Assembly: GCA_019636285.1 (NCBI GenBank)
Contig: JAHBXV010000067.1
Coordinates: 1 to 25,311 of the forward strand
Direction: 5' to 3'
DNA from: Planctomycetaceae bacterium
GTDB lineage: Bacteria; Planctomycetota; Planctomycetia; Planctomycetales; Planctomycetaceae
DNA: 25,311 nt
The notes below the pieces were generated by a model. It ran no database searches and had not been told where the DNA came from. It saw only the letters and a program-made list of their open reading frames with translations. This document shows positions 2,286 to 25,311 of this stretch, one piece after another (position 1 is the first letter of the stretch; every line of letters starts with the position of its first letter). The translations under genes were made by a program, and so were the position numbers.

Positions 2286-2287
2286 AC

Positions 2288-7078: not shown

Positions 7079-7084
7079 AATATA
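7079..7084 (-). promoter_or_regulatory. Candidate -10 hexamer TATATT located 7 nt upstream of the abiEi ATG, implying a leaderless or near-leaderless transcript. A weak -35 CTGGCA lies 18 nt upstream, next to the direct repeat ACGCC-ACGCC.
   Basis: Read from the reverse complement of 7072-7130. No SD sequence lies between the hexamer and the ATG. Confidence 0.3.
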
Positions 7085-7569
7085 CCAGCACGGCGTGGCG
7101 TGTGCCAGTTTTTCTATCCAGGCGAGGCAGTTTTGGTAGAGGGCCAACACGGATGGGGGCTCGGCTTCCGAATGCCACGATGGACGGTGGCGGCAAGGCC
7201 ATGCGGCAAAACCGCTACAGCCGGACCGGAGATCGTGAGGGCCAACTCCCCGTAGGGCAGATTGGGATTCTCAGGGGCGGCCTCCGGGGTGCAAAAATGA
7301 GATCGACCCTCATTTACCCGCGAATTGCCGAGTCTATCACGATGAAGAACCTGTTTCAGCCCCTGTCGCTGCCGATCCTGGCGAAGCCGAGCGCCCAAGA
7401 GGTTTGTTGAAATCGCCCGTCGAGGCCTATCGCTCCGCCACGACTAACGATGTTCAGAAACGTCTCGTGGACATCCTTGATCCTCCGGAGTTACACCGGA
7501 TACAGCCCGGTGAGTGTGCGATAGGACCGAGTGAAGCTGCTTACAATCGCTCAGCAAACAACGCTTCAC

Positions 7570-10500
7570 TTACTGTTTGTGGATTGTCGTGGCAGCTTCT
7601 TCGACCATGACCGGGGATGGATTCAGTGTTGGATCGCTGGTTGGTTGCGATCCGGCCAACGGCGTCGGCATACCGGCTGATATCGGATTTGAAGGCGGTT
7701 GAATTCCGTCGGAGTGGGGCTGCTTATGTTCGTAAACCTTGCGGCCAAACTTGAAGAACAATGCAGGCGTGACGACTTGGTCGAGGATCGTCGACGTGAG
7801 CATTCCGCCGAAGACAACCAACGCCAGCGGATACAGAATCTCCTTGCCAGTCTGGCCTGCTCCGAACAGCAGTGGCAAGAGGCCGATGAAACTGGTCATC
7901 GCGGTCATCATCACGGGGGCGAGGCGTTCCAGGCTGCCACGCACGATCATCTGTTCGGAGAAGGCTTCACCTTCATGCTGCATCAGGTGAATGTAGTGTG
8001 TGATCATCATGATGCCGTTGCGACTCACGACGCCGATGAGCGTGATGAAGCCAACCCAGTGCGCGACGGACAGACTGGTGGCACTGACCCACACACGGGG
8101 CCAGTCCCACCAGGGGGCGGCTTGCAATGCGGACCACTCGGGGCGATTGACGATCAACAGCGTCAGCACCGAACCGAATGCAGCGAGAGGGATGTTGACT
8201 AGGACTTGTACAGCGGCCCTCCACGAATCGAGCGCTTTGCAGAGCAGCAGGAAGACCCCAAGGATGCTGAGCGTGCCGAGTATTGCCAAGCGGCGGTTGG
8301 CTTGCTGCTGGGCCTCAAACTGTCCGCTGAATTCGACGTAGTAGCTGCCGGGAAGTTGTTGGAGACTCTCTTCAACAGGGGCGACAGCCGCCTTGATATC
8401 CCTCACCACACTGGCGAGGTCACGCCCCTGCACGTTGCAGAAGACAACGATCCGACGTTGGACATTCTCGCGGTTGAGCGTGTTCGGGCCGGTGGTGTCC
8501 AGCACTTCCGCGACTTGTCCCAGCGCAACGCGGCGGCCGGAGGGAGTCTCCAGAATCGTCTCATTGATGGTTTCGGGATCGCTGCGCGAGGCTTCGTCGT
8601 ACCAGACGACGAGTCCAAAATAGCGGTCTTCGTCTAGCACTTGCGAGACGACTTGCCCCCGGTAGGCCGTCTCCAACAGATCCGCGACATCGCCCGGAGC
8701 GAGTCCGTAGCGGGCGGCCTCGTCACGCTTGACTCGCAGGCGAATCTGCGAAATCTCGATCTGCGGCTCGATCTGCAAATCGACGATGCCAGGGATCGTC
8801 TGCATTCGCTCCTGCATGTTGCTGGCGGCGGTCCGCAACTCGCGCAGGTCTTGCCCGAAAATCTTCACGGCGATCTGGGCGCGGATGCCCGACATCATGT
8901 GGTCCAGTCGGTGCGAGATCGGCTGACCGATATTGACCGCCGCGCCGGGGATGTTTGAGATGCGGTCGCGCACGTCGGCGATCACCTCGGCGCGCGGACG
9001 CCCCACGGAATCGAAACCCCACAAATGGACGATCGGGATCAGCCGCAGGGCCGCATAACCCCAGCCAGATTTCGGCGGATGGTGTTCGGCGAGTCGTACA
9101 TCGATCTCGGACGAATTGACTCCCTCGGCGTGTTCGTCCAGTTCCGCCCGACCTGTTCGGCGAGAGACCGACAACACTTCGGGAACATCGAGGATCAACC
9201 CCTCGGCGCGTGCGGCGATGCGCTGGCTTTCGTCGAGGCTCGTCCCCGGTTCCATACGCAGGCTGATTGTCAACGTCCCTTCATTGAATGGCGGCAGAAA
9301 CTCGCCGCCCATCCACAGGATGCTGGCACAGGAGAGCGTAACCAAAACGGCGACACCACTCAGAACCAGCGTTGCGTGACGTAACGTGAACCTCAATACC
9401 ATCTCATCCAGTCGCTTGAGCCAGCGAAGGACCAGCGGGTCGGCTCCTTCGTCCAGCAACTTGGCTTTCGACAGCAGTACCGAACCGAATGCGGGAGTGA
9501 AGGTCAGTGACACGACTAGCGAACAGAGCAGAGCGGTGATGTAGGCTACGCCCAGCGGAGCGAACATACGGCCTTCCAACCCGGCCATCGAAAACAACGG
9601 GAACATGACCAGAATGACAATCAGTGTGGCATAGACAATCGAATTGCGCACTTCGCACGAGGCGTCGTAGATCACGTCCAAAGGTGAACGCTGCTGGCTA
9701 ACTGGCAGGTGCCGATTTTCCTTCAAACGGCGATAGATGTTCTCGATGTCGACGATGGAATCGTCCACCAGATCGCCGATCGCCACCGCGATGCCTCCCA
9801 GCGTCATCGTGTTGATCGTGATGCCAAACCAGTGGAACACCAGAATCGTGAGCAGGATCGACAGTGGCATCGACGTGAGCGAACTGACGCTCGTGCGGAA
9901 ATTGCCCATCATCAGGAACAGGATGACGACCACCCACAAGGCCCCGTCACGCACCGCTTCGGTGACGTTTTCCACGGCGGCTGCGATGAAGTCGGCCTGC
10001 TTGAAGATGCGACGCTCGATGACGACATCGGGCGGCAATTCTTTCTGCAACGATTCCAGAACGTCGTCGATCATGCGGTCCAAAGCCAGCGTGTCGGCGT
10101 TGGGTTGTTTCTGCACCGTGATGATGACGGCCGGGCCACCGCTGACTTTTGTTGTCGCATGTACCTCTTCGGGCTGGTCGCCGCCGTCATGCCCATGGGC
10201 TGCCGGTACCGGAGTGTGCGGATGGGGCGACTGCTCGTCGTGACTCCCGTTCGAGTGTCCGTCCTCGCCGTGACTTTCGTCGTGTGCAGAGGAGTCTGGA
10301 TGTTCGTGCGGCAGTGATTCGCGAACGGCAGCGTTCACATCGGGTTCGAGCTTCACCCACGCGCTGCCATCTCCCCGTTTGACCGGCCCGCCGAAGCGGA
10401 CTTCGGCCACGTCCTTGATCCGGACCGGCATCGGGTCACGCCACAGAACGGGCGTGTTTTCAATCTCCTCCAGCGTGAGGCTCTGCCCATTGATGCGTAA

Positions 10501-11211
10501 CAGAGACTCTTTCGGTGAGCGGACTACGATGCCACCACCGGCGATCACGTTCGCCTTCTTCGCGGCCGTGACAAGTTGTTCCAGCGTCACGTTCTGAGCG
10601 GCCAACCGCGCTGGGGACGTGACGATCTGATACTGTTTGAAGATCCCGCCCATGACCGTGACCTGCGACACGCCACCCACTGCCAACAGCCGGTTCCGCA
10701 GCGTGAACTCTCCCAGCGTGCGTAGCTCCATCGCCTTGGCGTTTTGTTCTTCGGGGGTCTTCAACTCCGCGCTGGAGCGCAGGCCGAGCAACATGATCTC
10801 GCCCATGATCGACGAGATCGGTGCCATCACCGGATTCGTTCCTGCGGGCAGTCGCTCGCGGGCGAGTTGCAACTTCTCGGACACAATTTGCCGGTCGCGA
10901 AAGATGTCGGTGCCCCAATCGAACTCGACCCACACGATCGACAGTCCGATTCCCGATGCCGACCGGACTCGTTTCACGTCGGTTGCGCCGTTCAGCAGGA
11001 ACTCAAGAGGTCGGGTGACCAGCACCTCGACCTCTTCGGGGGCCAGACCAGTGGCTTCGGTCATGATTGTGACCGTCGGGCGGTTCAAATCCGGAAACAC
11101 ATCGACTGGCATCTCGCGCAGCTGGATGGCTCCCAATACCATGACGACGAGCGCCCCGATCAACACCAGGGCTCGGTTTTTCAGCGAGAAGGAAATGATT
11201 CCATTCAGCAT
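7570..11211 (-). CDS. Heavy-metal efflux RND transporter, CusA/CzcA (HME) family, with a His-rich periplasmic insertion
   Basis: Starts MLNGIISFSLKNRALVLIGALVVMVLG (ATG 11211). 12-TM RND architecture with the HME-type TM4 segment VAIGDLVDDSIVDIENI. The roughly 50-aa His/Asp/Glu-rich segment HEHPDSSAHDESHGEDGHSNGSHDEQSPHPHTPVPAAHGHDGG maps to 10162-10311. Confidence 0.9.
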   Translation of the reverse strand: MLNGIISFSLKNRALVLIGALVVMVLGAIQLREMPVDVFPDLNRPTVTIMTEATGLAPEEVEVLVTRPLEFLLNGATDVKRVRSASGIGLSIVWVEFDWGTDIFRDRQIVSEKLQLARERLPAGTNPVMAPISSIMGEIMLLGLRSSAELKTPEEQNAKAMELRTLGEFTLRNRLLAVGGVSQVTVMGGIFKQYQIVTSPARLAAQNVTLEQLVTAAKKANVIAGGGIVVRSPKESLLRINGQSLTLEEIENTPVLWRDPMPVRIKDVAEVRFGGPVKRGDGSAWVKLEPDVNAAVRESLPHEHPDSSAHDESHGEDGHSNGSHDEQSPHPHTPVPAAHGHDGGDQPEEVHATTKVSGGPAVIITVQKQPNADTLALDRMIDDVLESLQKELPPDVVIERRIFKQADFIAAAVENVTEAVRDGALWVVVILFLMMGNFRTSVSSLTSMPLSILLTILVFHWFGITINTMTLGGIAVAIGDLVDDSIVDIENIYRRLKENRHLPVSQQRSPLDVIYDASCEVRNSIVYATLIVILVMFPLFSMAGLEGRMFAPLGVAYITALLCSLVVSLTFTPAFGSVLLSKAKLLDEGADPLVLRWLKRLDEMVLRFTLRHATLVLSGVAVLVTLSCASILWMGGEFLPPFNEGTLTISLRMEPGTSLDESQRIAARAEGLILDVPEVLSVSRRTGRAELDEHAEGVNSSEIDVRLAEHHPPKSGWGYAALRLIPIVHLWGFDSVGRPRAEVIADVRDRISNIPGAAVNIGQPISHRLDHMMSGIRAQIAVKIFGQDLRELRTAASNMQERMQTIPGIVDLQIEPQIEISQIRLRVKRDEAARYGLAPGDVADLLETAYRGQVVSQVLDEDRYFGLVVWYDEASRSDPETINETILETPSGRRVALGQVAEVLDTTGPNTLNRENVQRRIVVFCNVQGRDLASVVRDIKAAVAPVEESLQQLPGSYYVEFSGQFEAQQQANRRLAILGTLSILGVFLLLCKALDSWRAAVQVLVNIPLAAFGSVLTLLIVNRPEWSALQAAPWWDWPRVWVSATSLSVAHWVGFITLIGVVSRNGIMMITHYIHLMQHEGEAFSEQMIVRGSLERLAPVMMTAMTSFIGLLPLLFGAGQTGKEILYPLALVVFGGMLTSTILDQVVTPALFFKFGRKVYEHKQPHSDGIQPPSNPISAGMPTPLAGSQPTSDPTLNPSPVMVEEAATTIHKQ

Positions 11212-11227
11212 GACGAACTTTCTGGCA

Positions 11228-13420
11228 TCAGCGCACGGCCGCATAGGCGGTTTGCAATTGTGGAACTCCGCCGGTGGCAATGTTCTCGCCGCGGGAGAGA
11301 CCGCTTTTCACCTCGAAAAACCGATCGTCGGCCCGTCCCAACTCGATACGACGCCGCTCGAATGTGCCGTCTGGCTTCCGGACGAAGACAAAGCTCCGCA
11401 GCCCATCGCGAATGACGGCCTCCAACGGGACGGCCAGGGTCGCGGGGGGCCGGTCGGTAGTCAGGGTGACTCGCGCCGCCATGTTGTGTTGCAGAGCCAC
11501 GGGTGGCAGCGACTGGAATTCGAGCCACGCGGCTTGTGTGCGACTGTCGGCCCCCACCACCGCTCCAATCCGCGTCACGGTTCCCTCGGCCGTGAGATCG
11601 GGATACGCCACCAATCGGATGCGGGCTTTCTGCCCCGGTTGGACGAGAACCGAGTCCCGTTCTCCAACAAACACCTGGACTCGCATTTGCGAGACGTCGT
11701 GAATCTCGAACAGCGGTTCGTCGGCTCGCACGACCTGACCGAACTTCCGATCCAGGTCTGCGACCAGTCCGTCAATCGGCGCTCGCACGGGCAATGTGTC
11801 GATCACGCGGCCCGTTTCGAGCACCTCCTCAATCTGCGTCGTTGTGACACCCAGCGTGAGCAGTTTCTGCCGCAAACCGGCAATCTGAGTGTCGAACGTC
11901 TTCACTTGCCCCTCCGTTTCGAGAATCGTCCGACGTGGGATCGCATCGCCCACGCCACGGCGACGGACCAGTGTGTCACGCCACATCACACCATCGAGAT
12001 GTGCCTGTAACAGCCCCAGTTGAATGTCCCGTAGTTCGAGGCTGGCAATTTCGGCGAGTACGTCTCCGGCTTTGACAGACTGTCCACGGTCGACGTGAAT
12101 GCCGACTAGCTTGCCCCCGAGTTGAGACGATGCCTGCGTGCGATGATCGGACGGGATGTCGAGTCCGCCATCAAAACTCTGGATGCGCTCGACGACATGC
12201 TCGGAGACGGGCTCCACCTTCAGTCCGATCGTCCGTGCCGTCTCTGGTCCGATGCGCAGCACACCGAGAAAGAACAGGCTCGACAGGGAGTGCCCGCCCC
12301 GCGTGACCACGCGATCCCCTGGCAGTAACTTGCCCGCCAGAATTTCCACCTGACCTGACCACTGTCGTCCGACAACAACTGCGACCTTCTGATATTGCGA
12401 GCCGCCCTTCAGTTCGGATTCTTCGATCAGGACATAGCGTTCTGCTCCGTCGCTTTGCACCGCTTCCGTCGGCACGGACATGACCGACTTGCGACTGATC
12501 CAGGTCACTTCTGCCTGCCCGTTCATGCCCGGTCGAAACACGGGCGAGTCCTTTGGGTTTTGGACCGCAGCCCAGGCGGTGCTTTGATGAGTGAGCGGGT
12601 CGAGCATCGCGCCGAGTTTGTCGATCCTCGTCTCAAACACCCGACCCGGCAGTCCGCTCAGCGATAACCGCACCGATTGGCCAATCGCCACCCGATGCCA
12701 GTCCCGTTCGAGGACACCAATTTTCACCCACACGGTCGAGAGATCGACGACCTCCATCAGATGTTCGGTCGGTTCGACGAATTTGCCGATCGCCAGGTCC
12801 GAATGCACAACCACGCCACTCACCAGACTTTGTACCGGCAGCCGCAAAGGTTCTTTCTGATCGGTCGTCAACAAGCCCTCGGCCACACCCAGTGCAGCCG
12901 CCTTGGATTGCAAGACACGCAATGCGTTCAAGTTCTGCTGGTGGGCCAGTTGCGCTTCAAGCAATCGCTGTCCCGCAACAGCCCCCACTTTGGCTGCCGG
13001 TTCCAAGCCTTCGAGGATTTTTCCAGAGAGGTCGATGTCGTTCTGAGCCTGTTGATAGTCCAACCGCAGCGTGTGCAGATCGAGACTGTCGAGTTCAGCC
13101 ACAATCTGTCCCGCCTCCACGACATCACCGGGACGCACCAGCAGAGTGACCACCCGTCCCGCCAGTCGCGATGTGACGACGGCGTACTTAGTCCACGGAG
13201 CGACAAGCGTCGCGTAGGCCCGCAACCGCTCGGTTCCCTCGCGCTGCTCAACCTCCACCGTCCGCACGTCGATCAGATCGCGAGCGGCCTTGCTCAGTAT
13301 GATCCGCCCTTGGGCGAGGTCCACCTGAACACCCTTGGTCGGCAACGGTTGATGCCCTTCGTGCCCAAACGCCGAGGCAGTCAACGCACCAACGAGCACC
13401 AAACAGACAACCCGCTTCAT
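11228..13420 (-). CDS. Tandem-fused double membrane-fusion protein (two complete CusB/CzcB-like periplasmic adaptor modules in one 731-aa polypeptide)
   Basis: Signal peptide MKRVVCLVLVGALTASAFG followed by HEGH. Both halves contain lipoyl/beta-hairpin (..PGDVVEAGQIVAELDS.. and ..AGDVLAEIASLE..), coiled-coil and C-terminal beta-barrel/MP segments. Continuous ORF without an internal stop. Confidence 0.85.
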   Translation of the reverse strand: MKRVVCLVLVGALTASAFGHEGHQPLPTKGVQVDLAQGRIILSKAARDLIDVRTVEVEQREGTERLRAYATLVAPWTKYAVVTSRLAGRVVTLLVRPGDVVEAGQIVAELDSLDLHTLRLDYQQAQNDIDLSGKILEGLEPAAKVGAVAGQRLLEAQLAHQQNLNALRVLQSKAAALGVAEGLLTTDQKEPLRLPVQSLVSGVVVHSDLAIGKFVEPTEHLMEVVDLSTVWVKIGVLERDWHRVAIGQSVRLSLSGLPGRVFETRIDKLGAMLDPLTHQSTAWAAVQNPKDSPVFRPGMNGQAEVTWISRKSVMSVPTEAVQSDGAERYVLIEESELKGGSQYQKVAVVVGRQWSGQVEILAGKLLPGDRVVTRGGHSLSSLFFLGVLRIGPETARTIGLKVEPVSEHVVERIQSFDGGLDIPSDHRTQASSQLGGKLVGIHVDRGQSVKAGDVLAEIASLELRDIQLGLLQAHLDGVMWRDTLVRRRGVGDAIPRRTILETEGQVKTFDTQIAGLRQKLLTLGVTTTQIEEVLETGRVIDTLPVRAPIDGLVADLDRKFGQVVRADEPLFEIHDVSQMRVQVFVGERDSVLVQPGQKARIRLVAYPDLTAEGTVTRIGAVVGADSRTQAAWLEFQSLPPVALQHNMAARVTLTTDRPPATLAVPLEAVIRDGLRSFVFVRKPDGTFERRRIELGRADDRFFEVKSGLSRGENIATGGVPQLQTAYAAVR

Positions 13421-13467
13421 AATCGAGCTTCCTGTCAGCGCTGCGTTCCTATTGTCATGTGGAAATG

Positions 13468-16092
13468 TCACAGCTTGACCCTCCTCAAGCGGAGTGCGTT
13501 GCCCACCACGGACAAGGAACTAAAGCTCATGGCCACACTGGCCCAGACTGGTGAGATCAAGAGGCCGAAAACCGGGTAGAGTAATCCGGCTGCCACAGGG
13601 ACGCTGGCCACGTTGTAGACAAACGCCAGGAACAAGTTCTGGCGGATGTTGGCCATCGTGGCGCGGCTCAACCGGAGCGCACGAACCAGCGACCGCAGGT
13701 CGCCGTGAACCAGGGTGATTCCGGCGCTCTCCATCGCCACATCCGTCCCCGAACCCATCGCGATACCGATGTGGGCCTGAGCGAGCGCAGGGGCGTCGTT
13801 GATTCCGTCTCCGGCCATCGCGACCACACGCCCCTCAGCTTGCAGACGCTTCACCACGTCGAGCTTTTGATTCGGCAGCACCTCGGCAATCACTTCGTCG
13901 ATGCCCAGCGATTTTGCCACCGCATCCGCTGTGCGGCGACTGTCGCCTGTCAACATGATGATTCTCAATCCCGCCTCTTGGAGCGCGCGGATCGCGTCTG
14001 CCGTGGTGGGCTTGATCCGATCCGCCACGCCAATCATCCCCGCGAGGCGTCCGTCGATGGCGACACACATCACGGTCTGCCCTTCGCCACGCAGTTCGTC
14101 CATGCGAGCGGCATGGTCCGCGAGGTCGATCGCGTGATCGGCCATCAGCCCTGCATTTCCCAAGGCGACGGACACTCCCTCGACGACACCGGTAACGCCC
14201 TTGCCGGTGACGGACTGAAACTCATCCGTTTGGGCCAGTGTCACACCACGTTCATTGGCCCCCTTAATGATGGCATCGGCCAGTGGATGCTCGCTGCCTC
14301 GTTCCAGAGACGCTGCCAGCCGCAGCACCTCGTCCGCCGTGAAGCCTGGAGTTGGTTCGACATTGATCAGACGCGGCTTGCCTTCGGTCAGTGTCCCGGT
14401 CTTGTCCACAACGAGCGTGTCGGCACGTTGCAGGACTTCCAGTGATTCTGCATTTTTGATGAGGACACCGTTCTCCGCACCGCGGCCCACTCCCACCATG
14501 ATCGACATCGGTGTCGCCAGCCCCAACGCACACGGACAGGCGATAATTAGAACCGCGACGGCATTCACAAGAGCATGTGCGAGCCGTGGCTCGGCTCCGA
14601 AAAGACTCCAGGCGATGAACGTCAGGGCGCTCACACCAATGACAACCGGGACGAAGTACCGCGACGCCTGATCGACGACGCGTTCAATGGGAGCACGGGT
14701 CCGCTGGGCGTCACCCACCATGCGGACGATCTGTGCGAGCAACGTGTCGGAGCCAACTTTTTCAGCTCGGATCAGCAAACTGCCTGTGCCGTTGATGGTG
14801 GCCGAGATCACCTTGTCATCCAACTGCTTCTCGACCGGCAACGGCTCGCCCGAGATCATAGACTCATCGACGGAACTGCGTCCCTCGACAACGATGCCGT
14901 CTGCGGTGACTTTCTCGCCGGGGCGGACGCGGAGCAGGTCACCATGCCGAATCAACTCCAGCGGTACATCCTCTTCCTTTCCGTCAGCAGTGACTCGTCG
15001 GGCCATCTTTGGAGCGAGGCCCAGCAACCGTTTGATCGCTCCACTCGTCTGGCTCCGAGCTTTCAACTCCAGGACCTGTCCGAGCAGGATCAGCACCGTG
15101 ACGACGACGGCCGTATCGAAATAGGGCATCACCGAACCGTTTGCATGGCGAAAGCCTTCAGGAAAGACGTCTGGAGCGACGGTGGCAATCAGGCTGTAGA
15201 GATAGGCTGAGCCAACACCCAGCGCGATCAGGGTGAACATGTTCGGGCTGAGGTTCCGAATCGACAGCCAGGCCCGCTCGAAGAAGGGCCAGCCGCACCA
15301 GAAAACGATCGGAGTTGCGAGGAGCAGTTGTCCCCAGTTCAGCCCAGCCGCCCAGTGGTGAAGCGGATTGTTGGGGAGCATATCGGCCATCGCCACCACG
15401 AACACCGGCAGCCCCAGGATCAGACCCACCCAGAATCGTCGCGTCATATCTGCTTGTTCGTGGCTTGGTCCGTCTTGTAACTCGACAGTGCGCGGCTCCA
15501 GAGCCATCCCGCATTTCGAGCAGGAGCCGGGATGATCGCTCACCACTTCCGGGTGCATCGGACAGACATACTCCACTTTCAAGGTCGCAGGCTGATCGAT
15601 CGGTTCCAGCCCCATGCCACATTTCGGACAGACGCCGGGGCCAACCTGTCGCACCTCGGGGTGCATCGGACAGGTGTACTCGGCACCGTCCTTCCCAGCC
15701 ACAACCAGGGCGACGTCCTTCAAGTATTGCGAGGGATCGGCCACAAACTTCTGCTGGCAATGCGTACTGCAAAAATAGTACGCCCGCCCGGCATGATTCG
15801 CGGTTGCTACCGCTTTGCCGGGATCAACCGTCATGCCACACACCGGATCATGTGACGCCATCACATCGTGCGACTGGTGTGCGCAGCACGAATGTTCTGC
15901 CTGTGGATTCAAGAATCGCTCGGGTGCCACGCTGAACTGTTGCTGACACGACATCGAGCAAAAAAAGTAAGCGGTCCCATCATGGAGATGCGAACCAGCC
16001 GCGTGAGCCGGGTCGACGGTCATGCCGCACACGGGGTCAATCGCGGGCATTGAGCCTGCATCAAGGATGGGAAGAGCGGAGCCGATGTTCAT
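13468..16092 (-). CDS. copA: Copper(I)-translocating P1B-type ATPase with four N-terminal metal-binding modules (2x TRASH/YHS-like, 2x CPMHPE..CxxCGM HMBD-like)
   Basis: CPC motif ([13 protein letters not shown]), DKTGTLT phosphorylation site and GDGINDAP hinge. The N-terminus has DPVCGMTVD...YFFCS..C twice and CPMHPEV...CPKCGM / CPMHPEV...CSKCGM. Confidence 0.9.
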
Positions 16093-16128
16093 GACACTGC
16101 CTTAAAGAGAGTTCTTCTTCAGCCCGAA

Positions 16129-16974: not shown

Positions 16975-17016
16975 GAAATGACTCCTGGCCTGAAGATAAG
17001 GACCAAACATTTGGCA

Positions 17017-18159
17017 TTAGCGGGACTTCGGTTTGCCGACATCAATGCGGGCGGCCAACACCACGGGTTGCCCATTGAGTTTGGACTCCCAGCAGGCGAT
17101 GACCGGTCCCTCACCATTAGTAGTGGAACTGACCATCGGATCGCGCGCGGCTCCGGCCAGTTTTTGTGGCTGATTCGAGGCGGGACTCTGTACGAGCAAA
17201 TCGCCTTCGCGACTGGTGGTCCAGACGATGACTGGTCCATTGGACGAGGAAGCGATCCACGGTTGCTCGCCGCGTCCCAGCAACTGTTCACGCCCGCCTG
17301 TGCTGACGGCGGAATAGACCTCGCCATTCCTGCGCCAAACGGTAACGAGCGAGCCATTGGGACCTGCGGCCAGCATCCCACCGTCCATCGGGCAGGCGTT
17401 GAGCTTCCAGCTTCCTTGACCGGCTTTTTTCGCAGTTGCAAACGTCTTACCGTCGTCTTTGGACGTGGCCACATACATGTCCCGGTTTCCCGCCAGCGAA
17501 TTGCGAAACATGACATGCACGGCATCGTCGCTCACCAGGATCGATGGATGGCAGCATTCGCAGACGTTGCCATCCGGAGAACGATAGACCCGCACATTGG
17601 GCTGCCAAGTCTCGCCACCATCGGTGGATTTCGACGCATAGACCTCGGATCGCTTCTCGCGCAGATCGAGCCAGGTCGCCCACACTGAGCCATCGGGACC
17701 GGATGCCATGCCGTGCAGTCCCTCACGCGCGGAGTCGGCCGCGTCGTTGACTCGCACCGGTCCCTGCCATGTCGCACCGCTATCGGTAGAGCGCCAGGCG
17801 AGCACATCTCCATCGCGGCCTTTTCCCTGCATTCCGCCCACGGCTGTCACCACCACGGCATTTCCCGCAACACTGATGCGCGGCCCGCGTCGCATCCCCA
17901 GCGACATGTTCGAGATACGAAATGCCTCTTGAGGTTTCGTGAACGTGGCCCCGGCATCCGTCGATTGGCAGTGAAATACCGCGTCACCCGATCCGTAAAT
18001 GAGATGAACAGTACCATCCGTGGCCACCGCAGCCTGCGGCTGTTTGGGGGACTGTCCAGCACCACTGGTTGCAATCACGACCGGCTCGGCGGCCAACACG
18101 GGCATGGTCAGAAGGACAACAACCCAGCAGGTCAGACTTCGATAGAGACGTGTCTTCAT
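17017..18159 (-). CDS. Secreted BNR/Asp-box repeat beta-propeller protein (sialidase-like fold) containing a CECCH cysteine cluster
   Basis: Signal peptide MKTRLYRSLTCWVVVLLTMPVLAAEP. Asp-box motifs STDAGATF, STDSGATW and STDGGETW. The motif DGNVCECCHPS is present. Confidence 0.8.
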   Translation of the reverse strand: MKTRLYRSLTCWVVVLLTMPVLAAEPVVIATSGAGQSPKQPQAAVATDGTVHLIYGSGDAVFHCQSTDAGATFTKPQEAFRISNMSLGMRRGPRISVAGNAVVVTAVGGMQGKGRDGDVLAWRSTDSGATWQGPVRVNDAADSAREGLHGMASGPDGSVWATWLDLREKRSEVYASKSTDGGETWQPNVRVYRSPDGNVCECCHPSILVSDDAVHVMFRNSLAGNRDMYVATSKDDGKTFATAKKAGQGSWKLNACPMDGGMLAAGPNGSLVTVWRRNGEVYSAVSTGGREQLLGRGEQPWIASSSNGPVIVWTTSREGDLLVQSPASNQPQKLAGAARDPMVSSTTNGEGPVIACWESKLNGQPVVLAARIDVGKPKSR

Positions 18160-18280
18160 AGTGATCGCCTTGGAGGAAATGAGTGCTTGCCAATGTGCGT
18201 TTGCAGTAGAGCCAGCCATTTCAGAGAACCGATCCGATACCTGCTCCCACGCTTCTGACTTCGACGAAATCGCACCGCGG

Positions 18281-18673
18281 CTACTGATCCGCCGTGTTGC
18301 CGGCCTTCAATGCCGCGACCTTCGCCAGCGTCTCGTCGGGATTCTTGAGGGCCTTCGCCTTGCAGCCGGAACAGCAGACGAAGACGGGTTCGCCTTTGAT
18401 CTCGAACTTGATGGGTGTTCCCATCGAACCCAGACGGGACTGATTCATCACGGCACAGAACTGCTGGGCCTTCGCCAAGGCCTGGTCCTGCGGGCTCAGC
18501 TTGGCCAGCAAGACCGAGACTTTGGAATCGTCAGCTTCAGCAGAATGATCGTCGTGACTGGCCTGCGCTGACGAAGCCGGTGTCGTGGGTGGAGTCTGTG
18601 TCTGACAGCCCACAGCCAGCGCAACAGCGACAAGTGGTAAGAATGTGATGGCCAACTTCCGCGAATGAAACAT
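18281..18673 (-). CDS. Small lipoprotein with a C-terminal TRASH/YHS-like metal-binding domain
   Basis: Lipobox LAVGC. C-terminal FCAVMNQ...GEPVFVCCSGCKAKALKNPDE matches the TRASH pattern C..M....G..YFCS..C...NP. Confidence 0.75.
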   Translation of the reverse strand: MFHSRKLAITFLPLVAVALAVGCQTQTPPTTPASSAQASHDDHSAEADDSKVSVLLAKLSPQDQALAKAQQFCAVMNQSRLGSMGTPIKFEIKGEPVFVCCSGCKAKALKNPDETLAKVAALKAGNTADQ

Positions 18674-18726
18674 GATTTGGTCTCCGATGAATGGTCTTTG
18701 TGTCGGTACCGCAAGAAGGACGGAAA

Positions 18727-19644
18727 TTACTTGATGTAGGTATCCGGGGTCTTGACTTCCTCGGGATGCTCTTTGGCGAGCTTCACAAACTCATCCACGC
18801 AGGGTGGGCAGCAGAACTGGTACGGCAGTCCACCGATGATCCAGGTGAAGTTGGGATTGGCCCTGGTCATCGAGATGGGACATATCTTGTCACCGGGATT
18901 TGGCTTTGCGTTGTGCGACGACATCAAGCCCTTGAACTTCTGCGAGGCGGTCACTTTGCCGTTGGCCGCGATGTCAGCTTCCGTGTACTTGCCACCCGGT
19001 GTCAGATACAGCGCCTGCTCCTCAGCGGCTGGCAAACTGGCGGGCATTTCTTCCTGATGGGTCTCCGTCTGCGTCGTAAATCCCACGCGGAATCGCTCGC
19101 CATTGATTCGGATGTTCGGAATCGTGATTTCCAGAGGCTTGCCCCTCAGGTCCTCCGGCAACTCCCCTAAGAACTGAGAGGTCTGGCCTGGCCTGTCCCC
19201 CTCCTGCGGCGTCGCGATTAAATCCACCGGTACAGCATCGGGCTGTCCGACAACTTTGACATACGCCTTGATCGGCTGCTCGTCGACTTCTTGTATCCGC
19301 GACTCATCCTTGCCGAGCGTGAGCAGTCGGAACGCTCCCCCCTTCTCAATCACCGCCTCAGCGTGATAGCTGTCCGTTCCGATGGGGACGATGATTCCAC
19401 CATGCGAGCCCGGCTTGTGTGCGTGATCACTCTCGGCTGGCATGGCGACCCCACCGGGGTTGCTGGTGACCGTGGCAGGGTTTGGATTTGCTGGCGCGGT
19501 TGCCGCTGCCCCCTGCGAAGACGCGGTTGCTTGAGACGTGGCGTCAGTCCGTCGAGCCTGGTTCTGGCCGCAGCCGATCGCGAACAGAAACGAAATGCTC
19601 AGCAGCGCAAAGCCGGTGAGAGAAAGCGAGTTGCGTGTAGACAT
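18727..19644 (-). CDS. Lipoprotein with an N-terminal H-x-H..GG..YHAE motif region and a C-terminal TRASH-like domain (CPISM...YQFCCPPCVDEF)
   Basis: ATG 19644 is preceded by GGAGGAA. Lipobox FAIGC. HAHKPGSHGGIIVPIGTDSYHAEAV is a paralogous motif to the 21270-21776 protein. Confidence 0.75.
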   Translation of the reverse strand: MSTRNSLSLTGFALLSISFLFAIGCGQNQARRTDATSQATASSQGAAATAPANPNPATVTSNPGGVAMPAESDHAHKPGSHGGIIVPIGTDSYHAEAVIEKGGAFRLLTLGKDESRIQEVDEQPIKAYVKVVGQPDAVPVDLIATPQEGDRPGQTSQFLGELPEDLRGKPLEITIPNIRINGERFRVGFTTQTETHQEEMPASLPAAEEQALYLTPGGKYTEADIAANGKVTASQKFKGLMSSHNAKPNPGDKICPISMTRANPNFTWIIGGLPYQFCCPPCVDEFVKLAKEHPEEVKTPDTYIK

Positions 19645-19817
19645 GGTTGAGTTCCTCCGTTTCGCTCGCGCAGCATCAAGCAGCGGTCGAAACAGCCAAA
19701 TTGCATTGGGAAAGCAAGCGACAGCACGGCGAACTGCCGAACAATCACTACTGCAAAGCCAGAACTGTTTGGGCTACCACTCTGCTCAGCAGAGGAGCCT
19801 GACAGGGCGAGAAGAGA

Positions 19818-20261
19818 TCAGCAGCGGAGTGAGTTCACCGCGCGCAAAATGCCAACGCCATCCAAGCGAGGAAAGGCAGTGGGCCAGCAGAAGGTTGCCT
19901 TCAATGGAGCAACTTCTACCAAGGACGGCCATTCATGATGTGGCGCAACGATAAGCTGGCGTGCCCATCCGTCGTGCGAAATGGATGGAACGACCACGTC
20001 ACTGGCCAGGTTGGCCGAATTGATTTTCCCGTTCTTACAGGGGCATTCGTGTCCAGACCCATCCGAGGAATTGGGGGATTGGTCCGTCGAATCGTTTGAA
20101 GTATGACAACAGCACGAATCGGGCGCTGTCTCGCAAGCCTCGACTGGTCCCAAGGCCGCAAGCGTGCAACAACAGAACGACTGCCCGAAGAGCGTCGTTA
20201 CCATCAACAGCAGCGAAAGAGCCTTGCGTCCCACAATTGTTGTCCCTTGGGGCGAGTTCAA
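19818..20261 (-). CDS. Candidate secreted Cys/His-rich small protein (CCC..CETAPDSCCCH..HECPC); coding status uncertain
   Basis: 147-aa ORF starting at TTG. Signal-peptide-like N-terminus with an AXA site (VEA-CE). GC3 is lower than in neighbouring genes. Adjacent to an IS remnant. Confidence 0.3.
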   Translation of the reverse strand: MNSPQGTTIVGRKALSLLLMVTTLFGQSFCCCTLAALGPVEACETAPDSCCCHTSNDSTDQSPNSSDGSGHECPCKNGKINSANLASDVVVPSISHDGWARQLIVAPHHEWPSLVEVAPLKATFCWPTAFPRLDGVGILRAVNSLRC

Positions 20262-20337
20262 ACTCGCCTGATCGAACTTCTTTCATTCTATCGATGACCA
20301 GTCAAGGCGGGAAGAGCAGATTCATTCCAGACTGCTG

Positions 20338-20600
20338 ATGTACGACCGGGATACGAAGTTTACGAATGCGTTTGATGCGATCTTCGACCAGGAGGGAGCG
20401 GAAGGAGAACAGACGGCATTTCGGTCGCCGAGCACCAACGCTTTCGTTGAGCGGTTCATCCAGACATTGCAGCAGGAAGTCCTGGATCACTTCGTCGTTT
20501 TCGGTGAGCAGCACATGGACCACTTGGTGTCGGAAACCGTCGAGCACTACCACGATGAGAGGCCACTCCAGTCATTGGGGAATGAGCCACCGGTGAATCG
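20338..20600 (+). pseudogene. Truncated remnant of a DDE transposase/integrase (C-terminal about 85 aa of an rve-type core: [10 protein letters not shown]...[22 protein letters not shown]...[16 protein letters not shown])
   Basis: The reading frame has no upstream continuation, so the N-terminal catalytic region is absent. Opposite orientation to the surrounding operon. The tandem repeat CGGTTAAGCG-CGGTTAAGCG lies at 20664-20683. Confidence 0.55.
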
Positions 20601-20819
20601 CCAGACGACGGAAACCCCAGACAGCGATACCGACGAGACCAAGCTGCGGATCGTCCGCCGCGAGCGGTTAAGCGCGGTTAAGCGGGTGGCTCAATCGCTA
20701 TTCCTTGAGAGCGGCATGAGTTCTCCGTCGTACGTTTATTGGCAGTGGGAAGCCATGGTGCGGAACGCAGCTGTGCATCCAGGTACTGGTCTGCTTCCTC
20801 GGATGATCCGAGATGGTCG

Positions 20820-21161
20820 TCAGATGGCTTTCGGGCCAAACGCCAGCCAGAGTCCAATGGCCATACTTGCCAACAGCAGTCCCAACCCGATTGCCGACCA
20901 GAAGTCGAGATTGAGTCGCTCGGCGAACGCGAGCGGCACAAAGAAGGGCAGGCCGAGGGGAACGAGGATCAGCGTTTCTCGCGCCATGGTCGAGAGACTT
21001 TTCAGGTCGTGATCGCGAAACCAGGCAGCTCCGAAGGCGAGAATGCTGACCAGCGGTAGACTCAGCAGCAACGCCCCGGCCCTGGGCATCCGGCGGGAGA
21101 GTTCAGAGACGGCCAGGATGATGCACCCCGGCACGACGACGCGGAGCACGAATGACACCAT
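20820..21161 (-). CDS. Small integral membrane protein (about 113 aa, 3-4 TM), hypothetical
   Basis: Hydrophobic ORF. ATG 21161 has GAGGA about 13 nt upstream. An alternative upstream ATG lies at 21206. Confidence 0.5.
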
Positions 21162-21269
21162 CGCTGGAACATCCTCTGTGGAATCGCCACTTGGCAGACG
21201 AAGCATTCGCCCCTCTCAGCTCGCGCCGACGAGGGGCCAACGCCGTAAACCGTTTTGCTTGAGAATCGG

Positions 21270-21776
21270 CTATTCCTTGAACGTCCCCTGCGAGGGCTTG
21301 CCGTCAATTTCGCCGAGAACCGTGCCTTCGAAGTCAGCGACATTGCCAATTCCGGGGTCCGTCCCCACGAACTTGGCCGTCTTGCCCTCCTGCGCATCCA
21401 CCGGAGTGAGCTTGACTGTCATTGGCGCGACCACGGTGCCGTCCGCCGTCTTGGTTTCCTTAGTCGTCAGCGTGAGTTCCGTAGCGGAAACGGGAAGCGG
21501 CTTGGCATCTGTCGCATCTCCGGTCACGAACAGGACCGTGCATTCCTTCTTGGGGTGATCCACGGTGAATTCTGCGTGGTACTTGCCCATGTCAAACACC
21601 ACGCCGCCATTCGGTCCACTGCCGTGGGAGTGTCCTGCCTCTTCAGGCTTCGCGGCGTTGCTCGTGGTAGCCGGTGGTGCTGTCGCTGGGGCAGGCGCGT
21701 TAGGCTGCCCGCCACAACCCGCCATCGTCAGAGCAGCGGTCACCAGGCACAGATGGGCGATCTTCTTGAACATCAT
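21270..21776 (-). CDS. Periplasmic lipoprotein with the H-x-H..GG..YHAE motif (putative metal-binding), paralogous to the N-domain of the 18727-19644 protein
   Basis: SD AAGGAGA lies 6 nt before ATG 21776. The ORF-track GTG start at 21791 falls inside the SD. Lipobox TMAGC. Motif GHSHGSGPNGGVVFDMGKYHAEF. Confidence 0.7.
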   Translation of the reverse strand: MMFKKIAHLCLVTAALTMAGCGGQPNAPAPATAPPATTSNAAKPEEAGHSHGSGPNGGVVFDMGKYHAEFTVDHPKKECTVLFVTGDATDAKPLPVSATELTLTTKETKTADGTVVAPMTVKLTPVDAQEGKTAKFVGTDPGIGNVADFEGTVLGEIDGKPSQGTFKE

Positions 21777-21808
21777 CTCATTCTCCTTCACTCGGAAACA
21801 CAGATCAT

Positions 21809-24800
21809 CTACATCCCTGACACAGGGCGACTGGTCCGCAGCAGTTCTTCGTCAGAAACTTGGCTGTGAGCCAGTCGGTCGGCATCCTTGCCGGAAAACT
21901 TCCAGAACAGACCGGGGTGAATCAGGAACTCGCAGAAGGTCGAGGTCACCAATCCCCCCAGGATCACGGTGGCAACGGGATACAGGATCTCCAGGCCGGG
22001 CTTCTTGCCGCCGACGACCAGTGGAATCAGTGCAATTCCCGCCGTGAGGGCCGTCATCAGCACCGGAGCCAATCGTTCGAGGCTGCCGCGCAGGACCATC
22101 TCCTTCGAGAAGCCCTCCCCCTCTTCCTTCATCAGGTGGAAATAGTGGGTGACCAGCAGAATGCCATTGCGAACGGCGATCCCTCCCAACGACACGAACC
22201 CCACTAAACTGGCCACTGTCAAAGTCTGATTGGTCAGTACCAGGGCCAAGACCCCGCCAATGAATGCCGTCGGGATGGCGTTGAGAATCTGGAGCGTGAT
22301 CCGCACGGACGGATAGAGCATCATCAAGACGATGAAGACTCCCGCCAGCGAGACTCCCGCCAGGACTGTAATCAATCGCGTGGCAGAGCGTTGGGCTTCA
22401 AACTGGCCGCCGAACTCCACGAAGTAGCCGGTCGGCATCGCGACCTGTCCACGCACCCGCTGTTCGATCTCCACCACGGCACTTTCGAGGTCGCGACCCG
22501 TGACGTTGCAACGGATGGTCTGTCGTCGACGGACGTTTTCCCGGTTTACCAGGTTGGGGCCGCTCGCGGCTTCGGGGAAATCGGCGACTTCCCGCAGTCG
22601 AATTTGACCCCGCCCCTCGGGAAGATCGAGTCGCAACTCGCCCAGGTTGTAGGCGTCCGACCGGTACGGTTCCTTGAGCTTGATGACGAGGTCGAACCGC
22701 CGCTGTCCCTCCAGCACCTGGGACACGGCTTCTCCCTTGAGAGCTGTCTGCACGAAGTCCGCAACGTACTCGCGGCTCAGCCCAAAGAACGCTAGGTCAT
22801 CAGGGCGGAGCACCACGTGCAGTTCATCCACGCGCTCCTGCGGGTCGACGATCGGTGGCGTCACACCGGGAACCGCCGCGATGACATCGCGAACCTGTCC
22901 AGCGAGCTGACGCAACTTGTCGAGATCGTCGCCATAGAGCTTGATGGCGAGCTGAGCGTTGACTCCGGACAGCATATGACTAATGAGGTGCGACAGCGGC
23001 TGCTCCGCTTCGATCTCTACGCCGGGGACGTTGGAACGCAAGTCGGCCAGCAGTGTCTTCAGGAATTCGTCCCGGCGATAGCGAGCGTCAGGGTTCATGG
23101 TCAGGATGTACTCGCCGACGTTGACCGGCTGCGCATGTTCATCCAGTTCGGCCCGCCCCGTCCGTCGCGCGAAATGCAGGATCGGGGCGTCGAGTTGTTG
23201 CGGCGATTTCTGCATCGTCATCAGTCGGGCATCAATCAATGCGGAAACCTGATTCGATGCCTTCAGCGACGAGCCGCCGGGCAAGGCCACGTTGATTTGA
23301 ACAGACCCCTCATCGAACTTGGGGAGGAAATCCGCTCCCAGTCGGGAGAGTTGCCAGACACTGAATCCGACGCAGAGCCAAGTCAGCAGCAGCAAGAGTC
23401 CCGGCACCCGCATGCTGAACCGAATCAAAAACCCCGCCGCCCACTTCAGTCCCCGCAGGAGCAGACCGTCGTGATGGCCATGCGCGGCCTGCGACTGCGG
23501 CAGCAGGTAATACGACAACACGGGGGTGACCGTCAGTGAGACCACCAGGGACGCCAGAATCGACACGATGTAGGCGATGCCCAGCGGCGCGAACAAGCGG
23601 CCTTCGACGCCCGACAGAGCGAACAGCGGGACGAACGCCAAGACAACGACGGCCGTGCCGAACACGATCGCCGAGCGAATCTCCATGCTGGCTTCATACA
23701 CCACCACAATGTCCGGTCGCGGATGCGGGGCGGCGCTGTTCTCCGCCAGTCTGCGGAAAATGTTCTCGACATCGACGATGGCGTCGTCCACCAGCTCACC
23801 GATGGCGACCGCGATGCCTCCCAATGTCATGACGTTGATCGAGAGTTCGGTGCCGGTCAGCAACCCGACTAGGCGAAACACCAGCGTCGTGATCACCAGC
23901 GAGAGCGGAATGGCCGTCAGCGTGATGAACGTCGTGCGGAGATTGAGCAGAAACAGAAACAGCACGATGACCACCAGCACGGCCCCGATCAACAGGGCTT
24001 CTTCGACATAGTAGATCCCGCGATCGATGAAGCTCTTGAGCTGGAACAGGTCCGTATTGATGACCATATCGGCGGGCAGTGCTGCTTCGGTCTCCCGGAG
24101 CGCAGTTTTGACTTCGTCCGTGAGCTTGCGCGTATCGGCGTGCGGCTGCTTCACGATCGTGATGACCACACCCGCATGGCCGTCGATGCTGGCATCCCCC
24201 CGCTTGGGAGCGGGGCCTTCCTCGATCTGGGCAACATGGCGCAATAAAACGGGACGATCCTCGTTCACATCCACGGGAACTTTGCGGAGATCCTCGATCA
24301 CCTTGTCCCGGTTCGGCCCCAGTCGGCCAATGATTCGGACCGGCCGCTCCGTCTGATCTTCTTCGAGAAATCCGCCGCTCGTGTTCAGGTTGTTGGCCTG
24401 AATGGCAGTTTCGACCTGTTGCAGCGAGACGTTGTACTCCTGCAATTTCTGGGGATCGACCAGTACCTGATACTGTTTCTTGTCACCCCCCATCACGATC
24501 ACTTCCGCGATGCCGGGGAGCTTCAGCAGACGAGGACGGATGAGCCAGTCGGCGGTTGTCCGCACGTCCATTCGCTCTTCCAAGGGTGTCAGGAACCGCC
24601 CTTCGTAAGTTCGCTCGTTCCAGACAAAAGCAGCAGTTCGCCCCGATTCCACCCACTGCAAGCGGCTCACTTCCACCCGTTCCCAAGTCGCCAGATCGTT
24701 TCGATTCCGGGGTCGCCAGACGGTCAAAGCAGGGCTGCTGTCTGGTCCGGTTCTCTCGACCAGCAAATTCGTGGTCGCGATCGAAGCCAGTTCCCCCCCT

Positions 24801-25246
24801 TGCGGTCCCTGACGACGATGAATGCCGACATGGAGGATCTGTCCCATGATCGACGCGGTCGGCGTCATCAGTGGACGGACACCGGGCGGCATGGGCAGCG
24901 CGGCCAACCGTTCCATGACAACCTGTCGCGCGGCCCGCACATCCGTCTTCCAACTGAACTCGACATAGATGACGTTCATTCCCTGACTGGACTGGCTCCG
25001 GACCGCCTCGACGCCGGAAGCCCCCAGAATCGCCGTCTCGATGGGAAAGGTGACCAGCGTCTCGACCTCTTCCGAGGAGAGACCGGGGCATTCGGTCAGG
25101 ATGACGACCCGTGGACGGTCCAGATCGGGAAAGACATCGATCGGCAGCGTCGTCGAAAGGTATCCCCCATAAGCGAGCACGACCGCGCACGCGGCCAGAA
25201 TCAGCGCGCGATTCGTCAACGAGAATCGAATCAGAGCATTCAGCAT
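21809..25246 (-). CDS. Second heavy-metal efflux RND transporter (CusA/CzcA family), with an inserted segment of roughly 70-100 aa in the first periplasmic loop
   Basis: Starts MLNALIRFSLTNRALILAA. HME-type TM4 segment AIGELVDDAIVDVENI. The inserted segment HRRQGPQGG...TTADWLI maps to about 24529-24832 and is absent from the paralog at 7570-11211. Confidence 0.9.
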   Translation of the reverse strand: MLNALIRFSLTNRALILAACAVVLAYGGYLSTTLPIDVFPDLDRPRVVILTECPGLSSEEVETLVTFPIETAILGASGVEAVRSQSSQGMNVIYVEFSWKTDVRAARQVVMERLAALPMPPGVRPLMTPTASIMGQILHVGIHRRQGPQGGELASIATTNLLVERTGPDSSPALTVWRPRNRNDLATWERVEVSRLQWVESGRTAAFVWNERTYEGRFLTPLEERMDVRTTADWLIRPRLLKLPGIAEVIVMGGDKKQYQVLVDPQKLQEYNVSLQQVETAIQANNLNTSGGFLEEDQTERPVRIIGRLGPNRDKVIEDLRKVPVDVNEDRPVLLRHVAQIEEGPAPKRGDASIDGHAGVVITIVKQPHADTRKLTDEVKTALRETEAALPADMVINTDLFQLKSFIDRGIYYVEEALLIGAVLVVIVLFLFLLNLRTTFITLTAIPLSLVITTLVFRLVGLLTGTELSINVMTLGGIAVAIGELVDDAIVDVENIFRRLAENSAAPHPRPDIVVVYEASMEIRSAIVFGTAVVVLAFVPLFALSGVEGRLFAPLGIAYIVSILASLVVSLTVTPVLSYYLLPQSQAAHGHHDGLLLRGLKWAAGFLIRFSMRVPGLLLLLTWLCVGFSVWQLSRLGADFLPKFDEGSVQINVALPGGSSLKASNQVSALIDARLMTMQKSPQQLDAPILHFARRTGRAELDEHAQPVNVGEYILTMNPDARYRRDEFLKTLLADLRSNVPGVEIEAEQPLSHLISHMLSGVNAQLAIKLYGDDLDKLRQLAGQVRDVIAAVPGVTPPIVDPQERVDELHVVLRPDDLAFFGLSREYVADFVQTALKGEAVSQVLEGQRRFDLVIKLKEPYRSDAYNLGELRLDLPEGRGQIRLREVADFPEAASGPNLVNRENVRRRQTIRCNVTGRDLESAVVEIEQRVRGQVAMPTGYFVEFGGQFEAQRSATRLITVLAGVSLAGVFIVLMMLYPSVRITLQILNAIPTAFIGGVLALVLTNQTLTVASLVGFVSLGGIAVRNGILLVTHYFHLMKEEGEGFSKEMVLRGSLERLAPVLMTALTAGIALIPLVVGGKKPGLEILYPVATVILGGLVTSTFCEFLIHPGLFWKFSGKDADRLAHSQVSDEELLRTSRPVSGM

Positions 25247-25252
25247 GACGGC

Positions 25253-25311
25253 TACTTCCCTTCGTCTTCGTTTTTGTGAAGGCTGCCGTCCGCATGCACG
25301 TGATAACCCTT
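25253..25311 (-). CDS. 3' end (last 19 codons ..KGYHVHADGSLHKNEDEGK*) of an upstream minus-strand gene. By operon context probably the membrane-fusion protein partner of HME-RND #2. Partial, runs off the window.
   Basis: In-frame TAG at 25253-25255. Ends 6 nt before the RND ATG at 25246. Confidence 0.35.

Follow-up and report, generated by a model that had tools for sequence, protein, structure and literature searches.

Our analysis concerns a 25,311-bp window (the complete contig JAHBXV010000067.1 of a Planctomycetaceae bacterium metagenome-assembled genome (MAG), GCA_019636285.1) and in it a run of metal-resistance genes, 7570-25311, that encodes two heavy metal efflux (HME) permeases of the resistance-nodulation-division (RND) type, here called RND1 and RND2. 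An earlier reading, made from the sequence only, took this run to be a single 18-kb supercluster and saw in its lack of an outer-membrane factor (OMF), notable for a planctomycete-type envelope, a sign of either a distant OMF or pumps of two components. We think it likely that the region is instead two independent metal-efflux modules that have come to lie side by side, a mobile island next to a truncated operon of the classical type, and that the pumps are tripartite, with OMFs encoded off the contig or elsewhere in the genome. Module A (20820-25311 onward) would be the 3' part of an operon with the order OMF (in some relatives), adaptor, RND2, lipoprotein and small membrane protein. Module B (7513-20719) would consist of a Cys-rich protein, two lipoproteins with Cys motifs, a BNR propeller, a His-rich lipoprotein, the Cu(I) ATPase CopA, a fused double adaptor or membrane fusion protein (called MFP2x below) and RND1. 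Two sets of relatives were used. A scan of representative genomes gave 80 loci with RND2 relatives, almost all labelled Planctomycetota and the best 82% identical, and gene neighbourhoods of MFP2x relatives were compared over 86 loci; single loci are cited by L numbers.

The island is delimited by comparison with L081 and L082, the contigs that carry a 96% identical homologue of the fused adaptor (P0001). In blastn, positions 7513-20669 of the window match positions 15906-2752 of L081 as one collinear block with 94.2% identity over 13,161 bp; this block begins 57 bp beyond the RND1 stop codon and ends within the 3' end of a transposase remnant. The 174,768-bp JGI contig L167 is 93.7% identical to positions 8729-20719 of the window (its left end is cut by the limit of the locus), and there the alignment ends precisely on the stop codon of the transposase, with ArsR, rhodanese and TauE genes as neighbours. 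The L081 copy is flanked by glyoxalase, CCP_MauG and amino-acid permease genes on one side and by a response regulator with an HD domain on the other, and neither set occurs in the window. The neighbours past the transposase end differ in all three genomes, and those past RND1 differ between the window and L081. Homology to other genomes ends at 20669/20719, and RND2 and its partners lie outside the island. The same IS481 remnant marks the island edge in L081, L167 and L168; no intact transposase is present in the window, where only the last ~90 residues of an IS481-type enzyme remain. Because the blocks match in L081 and L167 with different flanks, the 13.2-kb segment has landed in at least three places. 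Positions 7513-20719 are therefore, judged by these alignments, a discrete, self-contained and horizontally moving island with a dead IS481-type transposase at one of its ends, an island whose mobility is suggested by like content in three contexts. The earlier notion of a single supercluster does not survive this comparison, since the island is found 94% identical elsewhere, RND2 lies outside it, and an opposite-strand IS remnant separates the two parts. The complete genome L086 (CP197413.1) carries a fused-adaptor module with a divergent MerR-family regulator upstream and a phage-type integrase directly downstream, with IS genes nearby (4327-4749 and 16708-17949); this context, too, indicates a module that is mobile and under separate regulation.

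The claim that the 18 kb hold no TolC/CusC-like gene is borne out for the whole window. No match to OEP was found among its 20 largest candidate open reading frames (ORFs), an OMF profile run against all six frames gave a best E of 0.76, and so no classical C-B-A operon (OEP, PF02321, together with adaptor and RND) is present in the window. For RND2 this absence is uninformative, because the right edge of the window is an assembly break and the contig stops 19 codons into the adaptor gene. No continuation past this edge came to light through exact-protein look-ups of RND2, CopA and the 305-AA protein or through a 34-base exact DNA search of metagenome contigs. That the partial gene is an adaptor, as had been proposed, is clear from its 19-residue end (KGYHVHADGSLHKNEDEGK), the C-terminus of adaptors that precede RND2 orthologues; the adaptor tails of L007 and L013 are identical to it, those of about 25 loci nearly so, and Pfam confirms these proteins as adaptors. 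In L001 and L016 the gene immediately upstream of the RND2-type adaptor matches Pfam OEP (1.4e-35 and 2.2e-37), and the OMF profile was built from these two OMFs. In the clade of the window (at least 74% identity) 5 of 15 evaluable loci (L001, L002, L010, L015 and L016) have an OMF gene immediately before the adaptor, which gives the classical C-B-A order, and it is absent from this slot in the other 10; in the distant clade it is adjacent in none of 26 loci. When 104 other ORFs of 380-620 amino acids (AAs) from the neighbourhoods of the RND2 loci were scanned with Pfam, at most one OMF appeared that the profile had missed. The RND2-type adaptors are full-length orthologues with or without an adjacent OMF, 46-71% identical end to end. 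From the frequency of OMF linkage in these relatives, the chance that an OMF gene lies upstream of the module A adaptor, off the contig end, would be about one in three. In many relatives the OMF/adaptor genes of RND2-type operons come after a conserved ORF of ~160-180 AAs that Pfam does not match (for example L001 657-1160, L016 6441-6968 and L009 7938-8429); here this ORF would fall off the contig end.

The core of module B, as found in the 86 loci, is a lipoprotein of the 305-AA type, optional 130-AA, BNR and His-rich proteins, and then the fused adaptor and RND1. MFP2x is a single ORF with two complete adaptor units, in agreement with the double adaptor of the sequence-only reading: TIGR01730 (cut-off 94.9 bits) matches it in both halves with 239.7 bits, and HlyD_D23 in two stretches (1.9e-61). 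The AlphaFold2 model (predicted local distance difference test, pLDDT, 86; predicted template modelling score, pTM, 0.73) has two full adaptor units, a transmembrane (TM) helix at residues 17-35, and two hairpins of ~60 residues each with high pLDDT (H130-161/H167-193 and H478-510/H513-540); the best fold matches are ZneB and CusB, and MexA and AcrA match too. Each half is thereby predicted to keep an alpha-hairpin able to dock an OMF. Right after the TM helix is an H-E-G-H motif that is invariant among 49 homologues (H37, G39 and H40, then P42-L43-P44; positions 13300-13320, residue numbers counted from the GTG at 13471). Its position resembles that of the metal-binding Met residues at the N-terminus of CusB, but the motif is built on His. 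The two halves are just 27% identical over 332 AAs, so they are old paralogues and a recent tandem duplication can be rejected as the origin of the double adaptor. The best-scoring 120 homologue clusters listed are 697-762 AAs long, almost every one with a query coverage of 95% or more, and 80 further metagenome loci were found. The fusion is a large planctomycete family that goes with an HME pump and a TRASH-like lipoprotein, and no experimental study of it turned up in the literature searched. Natural fused dimeric adaptors such as DSY0927 do exist and fit a trimer-of-dimers model, and BesA is an adaptor without a hairpin (PMC4446572).

Both permeases are HME-like, as had been read from the sequence. 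RND1 (714.6 bits) exceeds the TIGR00914 cut-off of 701.45 bits, and RND2 falls 4 bits under it, with a full-length match and a score ~240 bits above the best multidrug model. Among PDB sequences CusA is the top match of RND1 (4.9e-120), with ZneA also at ~1e-120, and ZneA is the best match of RND2, followed by CusA, at ~1e-119; multidrug pumps reach ~1e-60 in both cases. The two are 39% identical to each other. For RND1 we use a 1213-AA protein, since the CusA alignment begins at residue 24 of the longer ORF and the same call is made in L082 and L167. Its TM4 motif is AIGDLVDDSIVDIEN, and the pattern AIGxLVDDxIVDxEN is common to RND1 and RND2. Residues ~285-355 of RND1 (10147-10359) form a ~70-residue periplasmic insertion of low complexity, rich in His, Asp and Glu (it includes HEHPDSSAHDESHGEDGHSNGSHDEQSPHPHTPVPAAHGHDGG), with no counterpart in CusA, which may be a metal-capturing loop; BLAST alignments of RND1 to its homologues in L034 and L072 split in two, suggesting that this region is perhaps variable there. 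RND2 has an insertion of its own relative to ZneA and CusA, ~85 residues that are not of low complexity, between the first periplasmic segments (residues ~140-225, 24572-24829).

Several points weigh against the reading of two tripartite pumps, one of them on a mobile island. No OMF gene directly adjoins MFP2x-RND1 in any of the 86 loci, and one lies within 10 kb in 10 of them only, mostly divergent or several genes off (among 94 other ORFs of 380-620 AAs near these modules Pfam recognised at most one more). The lack of an OMF in cis is thus a real, family-wide trait of module B, and its use of an OMF in trans is assumed. A search of 19600-20850 for inverted repeats and MerR-type operators gave two short pairs only, of no clear meaning, and no transposon inverted repeats were found in that interval. 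Read-through from module A into module B is possible. In addition, RND1 does not have the CusA Met triad, the three-methionine cluster of CusA-type (HME4) pumps: M573, M623 and M672 of CusA (3K07) align to S, S and H in the HMMER alignment. RND1 bears the motifs EHAEGVN and HRLDH, which resemble those of a putatively nickel-related HME clade (PMC7060636), so that the substrate of the RND pump may not be copper. On the first of these points, the same pattern occurs in well-known pumps which borrow an unlinked TolC, and unlinked OMFs are common among RND systems.

The last two points lead to an alternative which we regard as possible, if somewhat doubtful, namely that the metal exported by the RND pumps is not Cu(I) but divalent (Ni, Co or Zn), with CopA carried along on the island as a passenger that acts separately. 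The replaced Met triad and the match to HAEGVH and HRLDH, which are motifs of NieA-type HME5-like pumps proposed to bind Ni (PMC7060636), speak for it, as do the acidic TM4 motif, the His-rich loop of RND1 and the HEGH motif of the adaptor; the OMF of L001 and the adaptor show weak similarity to the Ihp models of NCBIfam ("divalent metal ion exporter"), and the module occurs without CopA in many loci. On the other hand the HME5 class includes the copper pump CopBAC of Synechocystis, Cys4 motifs of the TRASH/YHS type are typical of copper handling, and CopA is repeatedly found nearby, as are an HMA-domain protein (L083/L084) and a MerR regulator (L086). Because CopA-type ATPases, the HMA-domain protein, the MerR regulator and the Cys4 motifs recur with the modules, the RND substrate is probably copper. 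CopA-like ATPases 37-40% identical to that of the window lie a few kb from RND2 orthologues in 14 of the 80 loci (for example L001 8399-10273, L075 3452-5665, L004 1628-4402 and L031 16703-18868), which hints that module A is also related to copper.

The window's CopA has ACPCALG, FVYN and MSFSS in its translation (the CPC, YN and MxxSS motifs) and scores 601.8 bits against the TIGR01511 cut-off of 397; its sequence marks it as a clear Cu(I) exporter. The 305-AA lipoprotein is identical to MBX3452515.1 (KF777_23440, from a Planctomycetaceae bacterium MAG) and belongs to a family with 1704 homologues. Its motifs are H74-x-H76...HGG...YHAE and C255...C278-C279-P-P-C282, and over 38 homologues the lipobox Cys, H74, H76, C255, C278, C279 and C282 (the last four forming C-x22-CC-x2-C) are invariant. 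Profile support for the earlier label "TRASH" is weak for the 305-AA protein (PF24273, E=0.006, 17.1 bits against a cut-off of 27) and nil for the 130-AA one (no match in Pfam or NCBIfam). JGI names 305-AA relatives "YHS domain-containing protein". The AlphaFold2 model of the 305-AA protein (pLDDT 74) is a beta-sandwich with a small C-terminal ribbon, and a fold search gave weak beta-sandwich matches (best E=0.012), including the copper proteins CrdA, P19 and PcoC, which we take as a hint only. Its gene lies directly upstream of, or near, that of MFP2x in nearly all of the 86 loci, and the 130-AA gene is kept after it in many. The BNR propeller recurs in the island module of relatives. The His-rich lipoprotein, which has no sequence match in Pfam, NCBIfam or the PDB, occupies the same slot in L081-L084, L086, L088, L096, L101, L110, L120, L125 and L151, and homologues of the Cys-rich 147-AA protein lie upstream of the 305-AA gene in L034, L081-L084, L097, L104, L108, L117-L119, L131 and L155. 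In the PDB neither the His-rich lipoprotein nor those of 173 and 305 AAs had a significant sequence match. On the module A side, the 173-AA lipoprotein follows RND2 in 75 of the 80 loci, and 25 of them have the 128-AA membrane protein downstream of this pair. The 173-AA and 305-AA proteins share an N-terminal His motif (pairwise E=1e-5), and in L041 and L053 a protein of the 305-AA type replaces the 173-AA lipoprotein beside RND2. Judged by the shared motif and this swap, each pump would have a cognate lipoprotein of one superfamily, plausibly a periplasmic metal chaperone.

That the whole 18 kb is one co-regulated polycistron which evolved as a unit is, in our view, improbable. The intact genes are all on one strand with 6 of 11 gaps under 50 bp, both modules occur within 10 kb of each other in L034 and L072, and terminator-like signals are at chance level. 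(Consensus scans gave 14 terminator-like sites against 13.2 expected from shuffled sequence and 3 promoter-like sites against 3.9; both consensuses are uninformative for this phylum.) Against these stand the island boundary at 20669-20719 with its 94% identical copies in two unrelated contexts, a 558-bp gap that holds the opposite-strand transposase remnant, a further gap of 173 bp, and the island core of L086 with its own divergent MerR regulator. In L034 (78-13450) and L072 (10001-23477) the RND2 and MFP2x-RND1 modules lie side by side, without CopA and the His-rich lipoprotein. They are convergent there, so co-transcription is not possible in these genomes and the modules are not an obligatory transcription unit.

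The combination of TRASH-like lipoprotein, fused adaptor and HME5-like RND could in principle be a distinct class of metal pump, either channel-free or docking a shared or non-canonical partner; in the docking variant three fused adaptors would serve each RND trimer, and the lipoproteins and BNR propeller would be obligatory hand-over parts. We give little credence to this joint proposal. RND permeases such as CusA and AcrB take their substrate from the periplasm or the inner-membrane leaflet. Very unlikely is the proposal that the pumps are truly two-component (adaptor and RND) and move metal only into an enlarged planctomycete periplasm where the lipoproteins sequester it: it accords with a window that has no OMF, with the 86 loci in which the fused-adaptor module has none adjacent, with the periplasmic lipoproteins bearing conserved His/Cys motifs that travel with the module in nearly all loci, and with an island of 13.2 kb that moves between genomes without one, but release into the periplasm gains nothing for a permease that draws from there, both adaptor halves of the model retain OMF-docking alpha-hairpins (unlike BesA, PMC4446572), RND2 orthologues have an in-operon OMF in 5 loci, for many RND systems it is normal that the OMF is unlinked, and an outer membrane and OMFs are present in planctomycetes (below). 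To connect the lack of an OMF with a special planctomycete envelope is an outdated view. The cell plan of planctomycetes is Gram-negative and includes an outer membrane, their membrane proteome contains a putative TolC homologue (PMC5394234), and Kuenenia encodes and expresses many OMFs, heavy-metal types included (PMC3422733).

Under the reading of two tripartite pumps the parts would work together as follows. CopA would send cytoplasmic Cu(I) to the periplasm, where the lipoproteins and the N-terminal His motif of the adaptor would capture metal and hand it to the RND pump. Three fused adaptors, equal to six adaptor units, would link the RND trimer through their alpha-hairpins to a TolC-family channel, which would be encoded elsewhere in the genome or, for module A, perhaps just off the contig end.

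The gene identities of the sequence-only reading are largely right, and its functional labels (two HME-type pumps, CopA, periplasmic lipoproteins) uphold the proposed metal-resistance role of the region, and the planctomycete origin that it considered is right too; the Cys-rich 147-AA gene had been overlooked. Lipoboxes are read in the translations of four proteins (L-L-G-C, A-V-G-C, A-I-G-C and M-A-G-C), in keeping with the many periplasmic lipoproteins noted earlier, and the BNR propeller and the copA gene stand as named (Table 1). The run 7570-25311 is on the minus strand as stated, except for the plus-strand IS481 remnant in its largest gap. Measured from gene starts supported by homologues, the intergenic gaps are 16, 47, 36, 42, 121, 53, 173, 558, 63, 17 and 5 bp, so that the description "mostly under 50 bp" is only roughly true. 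The left flank (1-7500) carries HNH, SPFH and AbiEii genes with no relation to metals; its content is like that of defence or mobile elements.

Table 1. Coordinates of the features of the window, with the evidence for each
Feature	Coordinates	Strand	Evidence or remark
HNH endonuclease	1646-2245	+	left flank
SPFH/Band-7 protein	3415-4521	+	left flank
542-AA protein, AbiEii nucleotidyltransferase toxin domain at residues 273-500	5522-7150	-	left flank; N-terminal half without assigned domain
Metal-resistance island, 13.2 kb, common to other genomes	7513-20719	.	blastn
RND1, HME-type RND permease, 1213 AAs, His-rich periplasmic insertion	7570-11211	-	TIGR00914 714.6 bits
MFP2x, fused double periplasmic adaptor, 730 AAs (ORF to 13471)	11228-13420	-	TIGR01730 239.7 bits, both halves
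CopA, P1B-1 Cu(I)-exporting ATPase, N-terminal 2xYHS + 2xHMBD	13468-16092	-	TIGR01511 601.8 bits
His-rich lipoprotein, 281 AAs (293-AA ORF to 17010)	16129-16974	-	lipobox LLGC; 17 His in 293-AA ORF
Secreted BNR/Asp-box beta-propeller, 380 AAs (400-AA ORF to 18219)	17017-18159	-	BNR_2 PF13088 1.1e-12; signal peptide
130-AA lipoprotein, C-terminal C-x26-CC-x2-C motif	18281-18673	-	translation
305-AA lipoprotein, HxH-HGG-YHAE beta-sandwich and C-terminal TRASH/YHS-like Cys4 ribbon	18727-19644	-	
Cys-rich small protein, 147 AAs, 11 Cys, hydrophobic N-terminal segment	19818-20261	-	translation; conserved neighbour
Truncated IS481-family transposase, last ~90 residues	20338-20719	+	rve_3 PF13683 2.1e-10; NF033577 positions 194-283 of 284
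128-AA membrane protein, PRK09272-like, last gene of RND2 module	20820-21206	-	NF006749 3.5e-17, below cut-off
173-AA lipoprotein, HxH-GG-YHAE motif	21270-21791	-	constant RND2 partner
RND2, HME-like RND permease, 1145 AAs	21809-25246	-	TIGR00914 697.3 bits, full-length match
Adaptor C-terminal end, last 19 codons and stop	25252-25311	-	tail KGYHVHADGSLHKNEDEGK, cut by contig end

Among known systems, CusCFBA of E. coli and SilCFBA are alike in the HME-type permease (CusA being the top match of RND1), the CusB/ZneB-like adaptor fold, the small periplasmic metal-binding partners in the operon and the association with a CopA ATPase. They differ in that here no OMF gene is present in cis, RND1 has S/S/H in place of the CusA Met triad, and the adaptor, a fused dimer, carries a TM helix at its N-terminus and has HEGH rather than Met residues; the partners here are lipoproteins (an HxH/YHAE sandwich with a Cys4 ribbon), not CusF. 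CzcCBA and ZneCAB resemble the region through ZneA, ZneB and the C-B-A order of the close relatives of the RND2 operon. They are unlike it in TM4, where ZneA has DFGIIVDGAIVVMEN, and in lacking the extra periplasmic insertions of both RNDs. The HME5 systems CopBAC and NrsBACD of Synechocystis list no OMF component in their operon names copBAC and nrsBACD, and a Synechocystis tolC (slr1270) mutant is Cu-sensitive (PMC4894872). Cupriavidus NieA has HAEGVH and HRLDH where RND1 has EHAEGVN and an exact HRLDH, a likeness that concerns the published motifs only; the nie operon, unlike module B, includes the OMF gene nieC (PMC7060636), and CopBAC, NrsBACD and NieA all work with ordinary single adaptors. 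DSY0927 of Desulfitobacterium hafniense, TriABC and the engineered AcrA-AcrA share with MFP2x the principle that two adaptor units would make one functional dimer, in line with a trimer-of-dimers (3:6:3) architecture (PMC4446572), whereas here the fusion defines the large planctomycete family described above. A search of the literature on planctomycete heavy-metal RND systems found no description of the fused-adaptor module, which is an uncharacterised, lineage-specific variant of the HME-RND systems.

The idea of an OMF-less super-operon in a special envelope is of little importance, because what the evidence indicates is tripartite HME-RND pumps of the ordinary kind together with an artefact of the contig end. 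Of more consequence is a precisely delimited copper/metal-resistance island of 13.2 kb that circulates among planctomycetes at ~94% identity. The lipoprotein family, uncharacterised and with ~1700 homologues, has invariant His and Cys4 motifs and is a near-constant companion of the pump, which makes it a candidate periplasmic metal chaperone. Finally, the family of naturally fused dimeric adaptors offers a possible natural test of the model in which tripartite pumps have a 3:6:3 stoichiometry.

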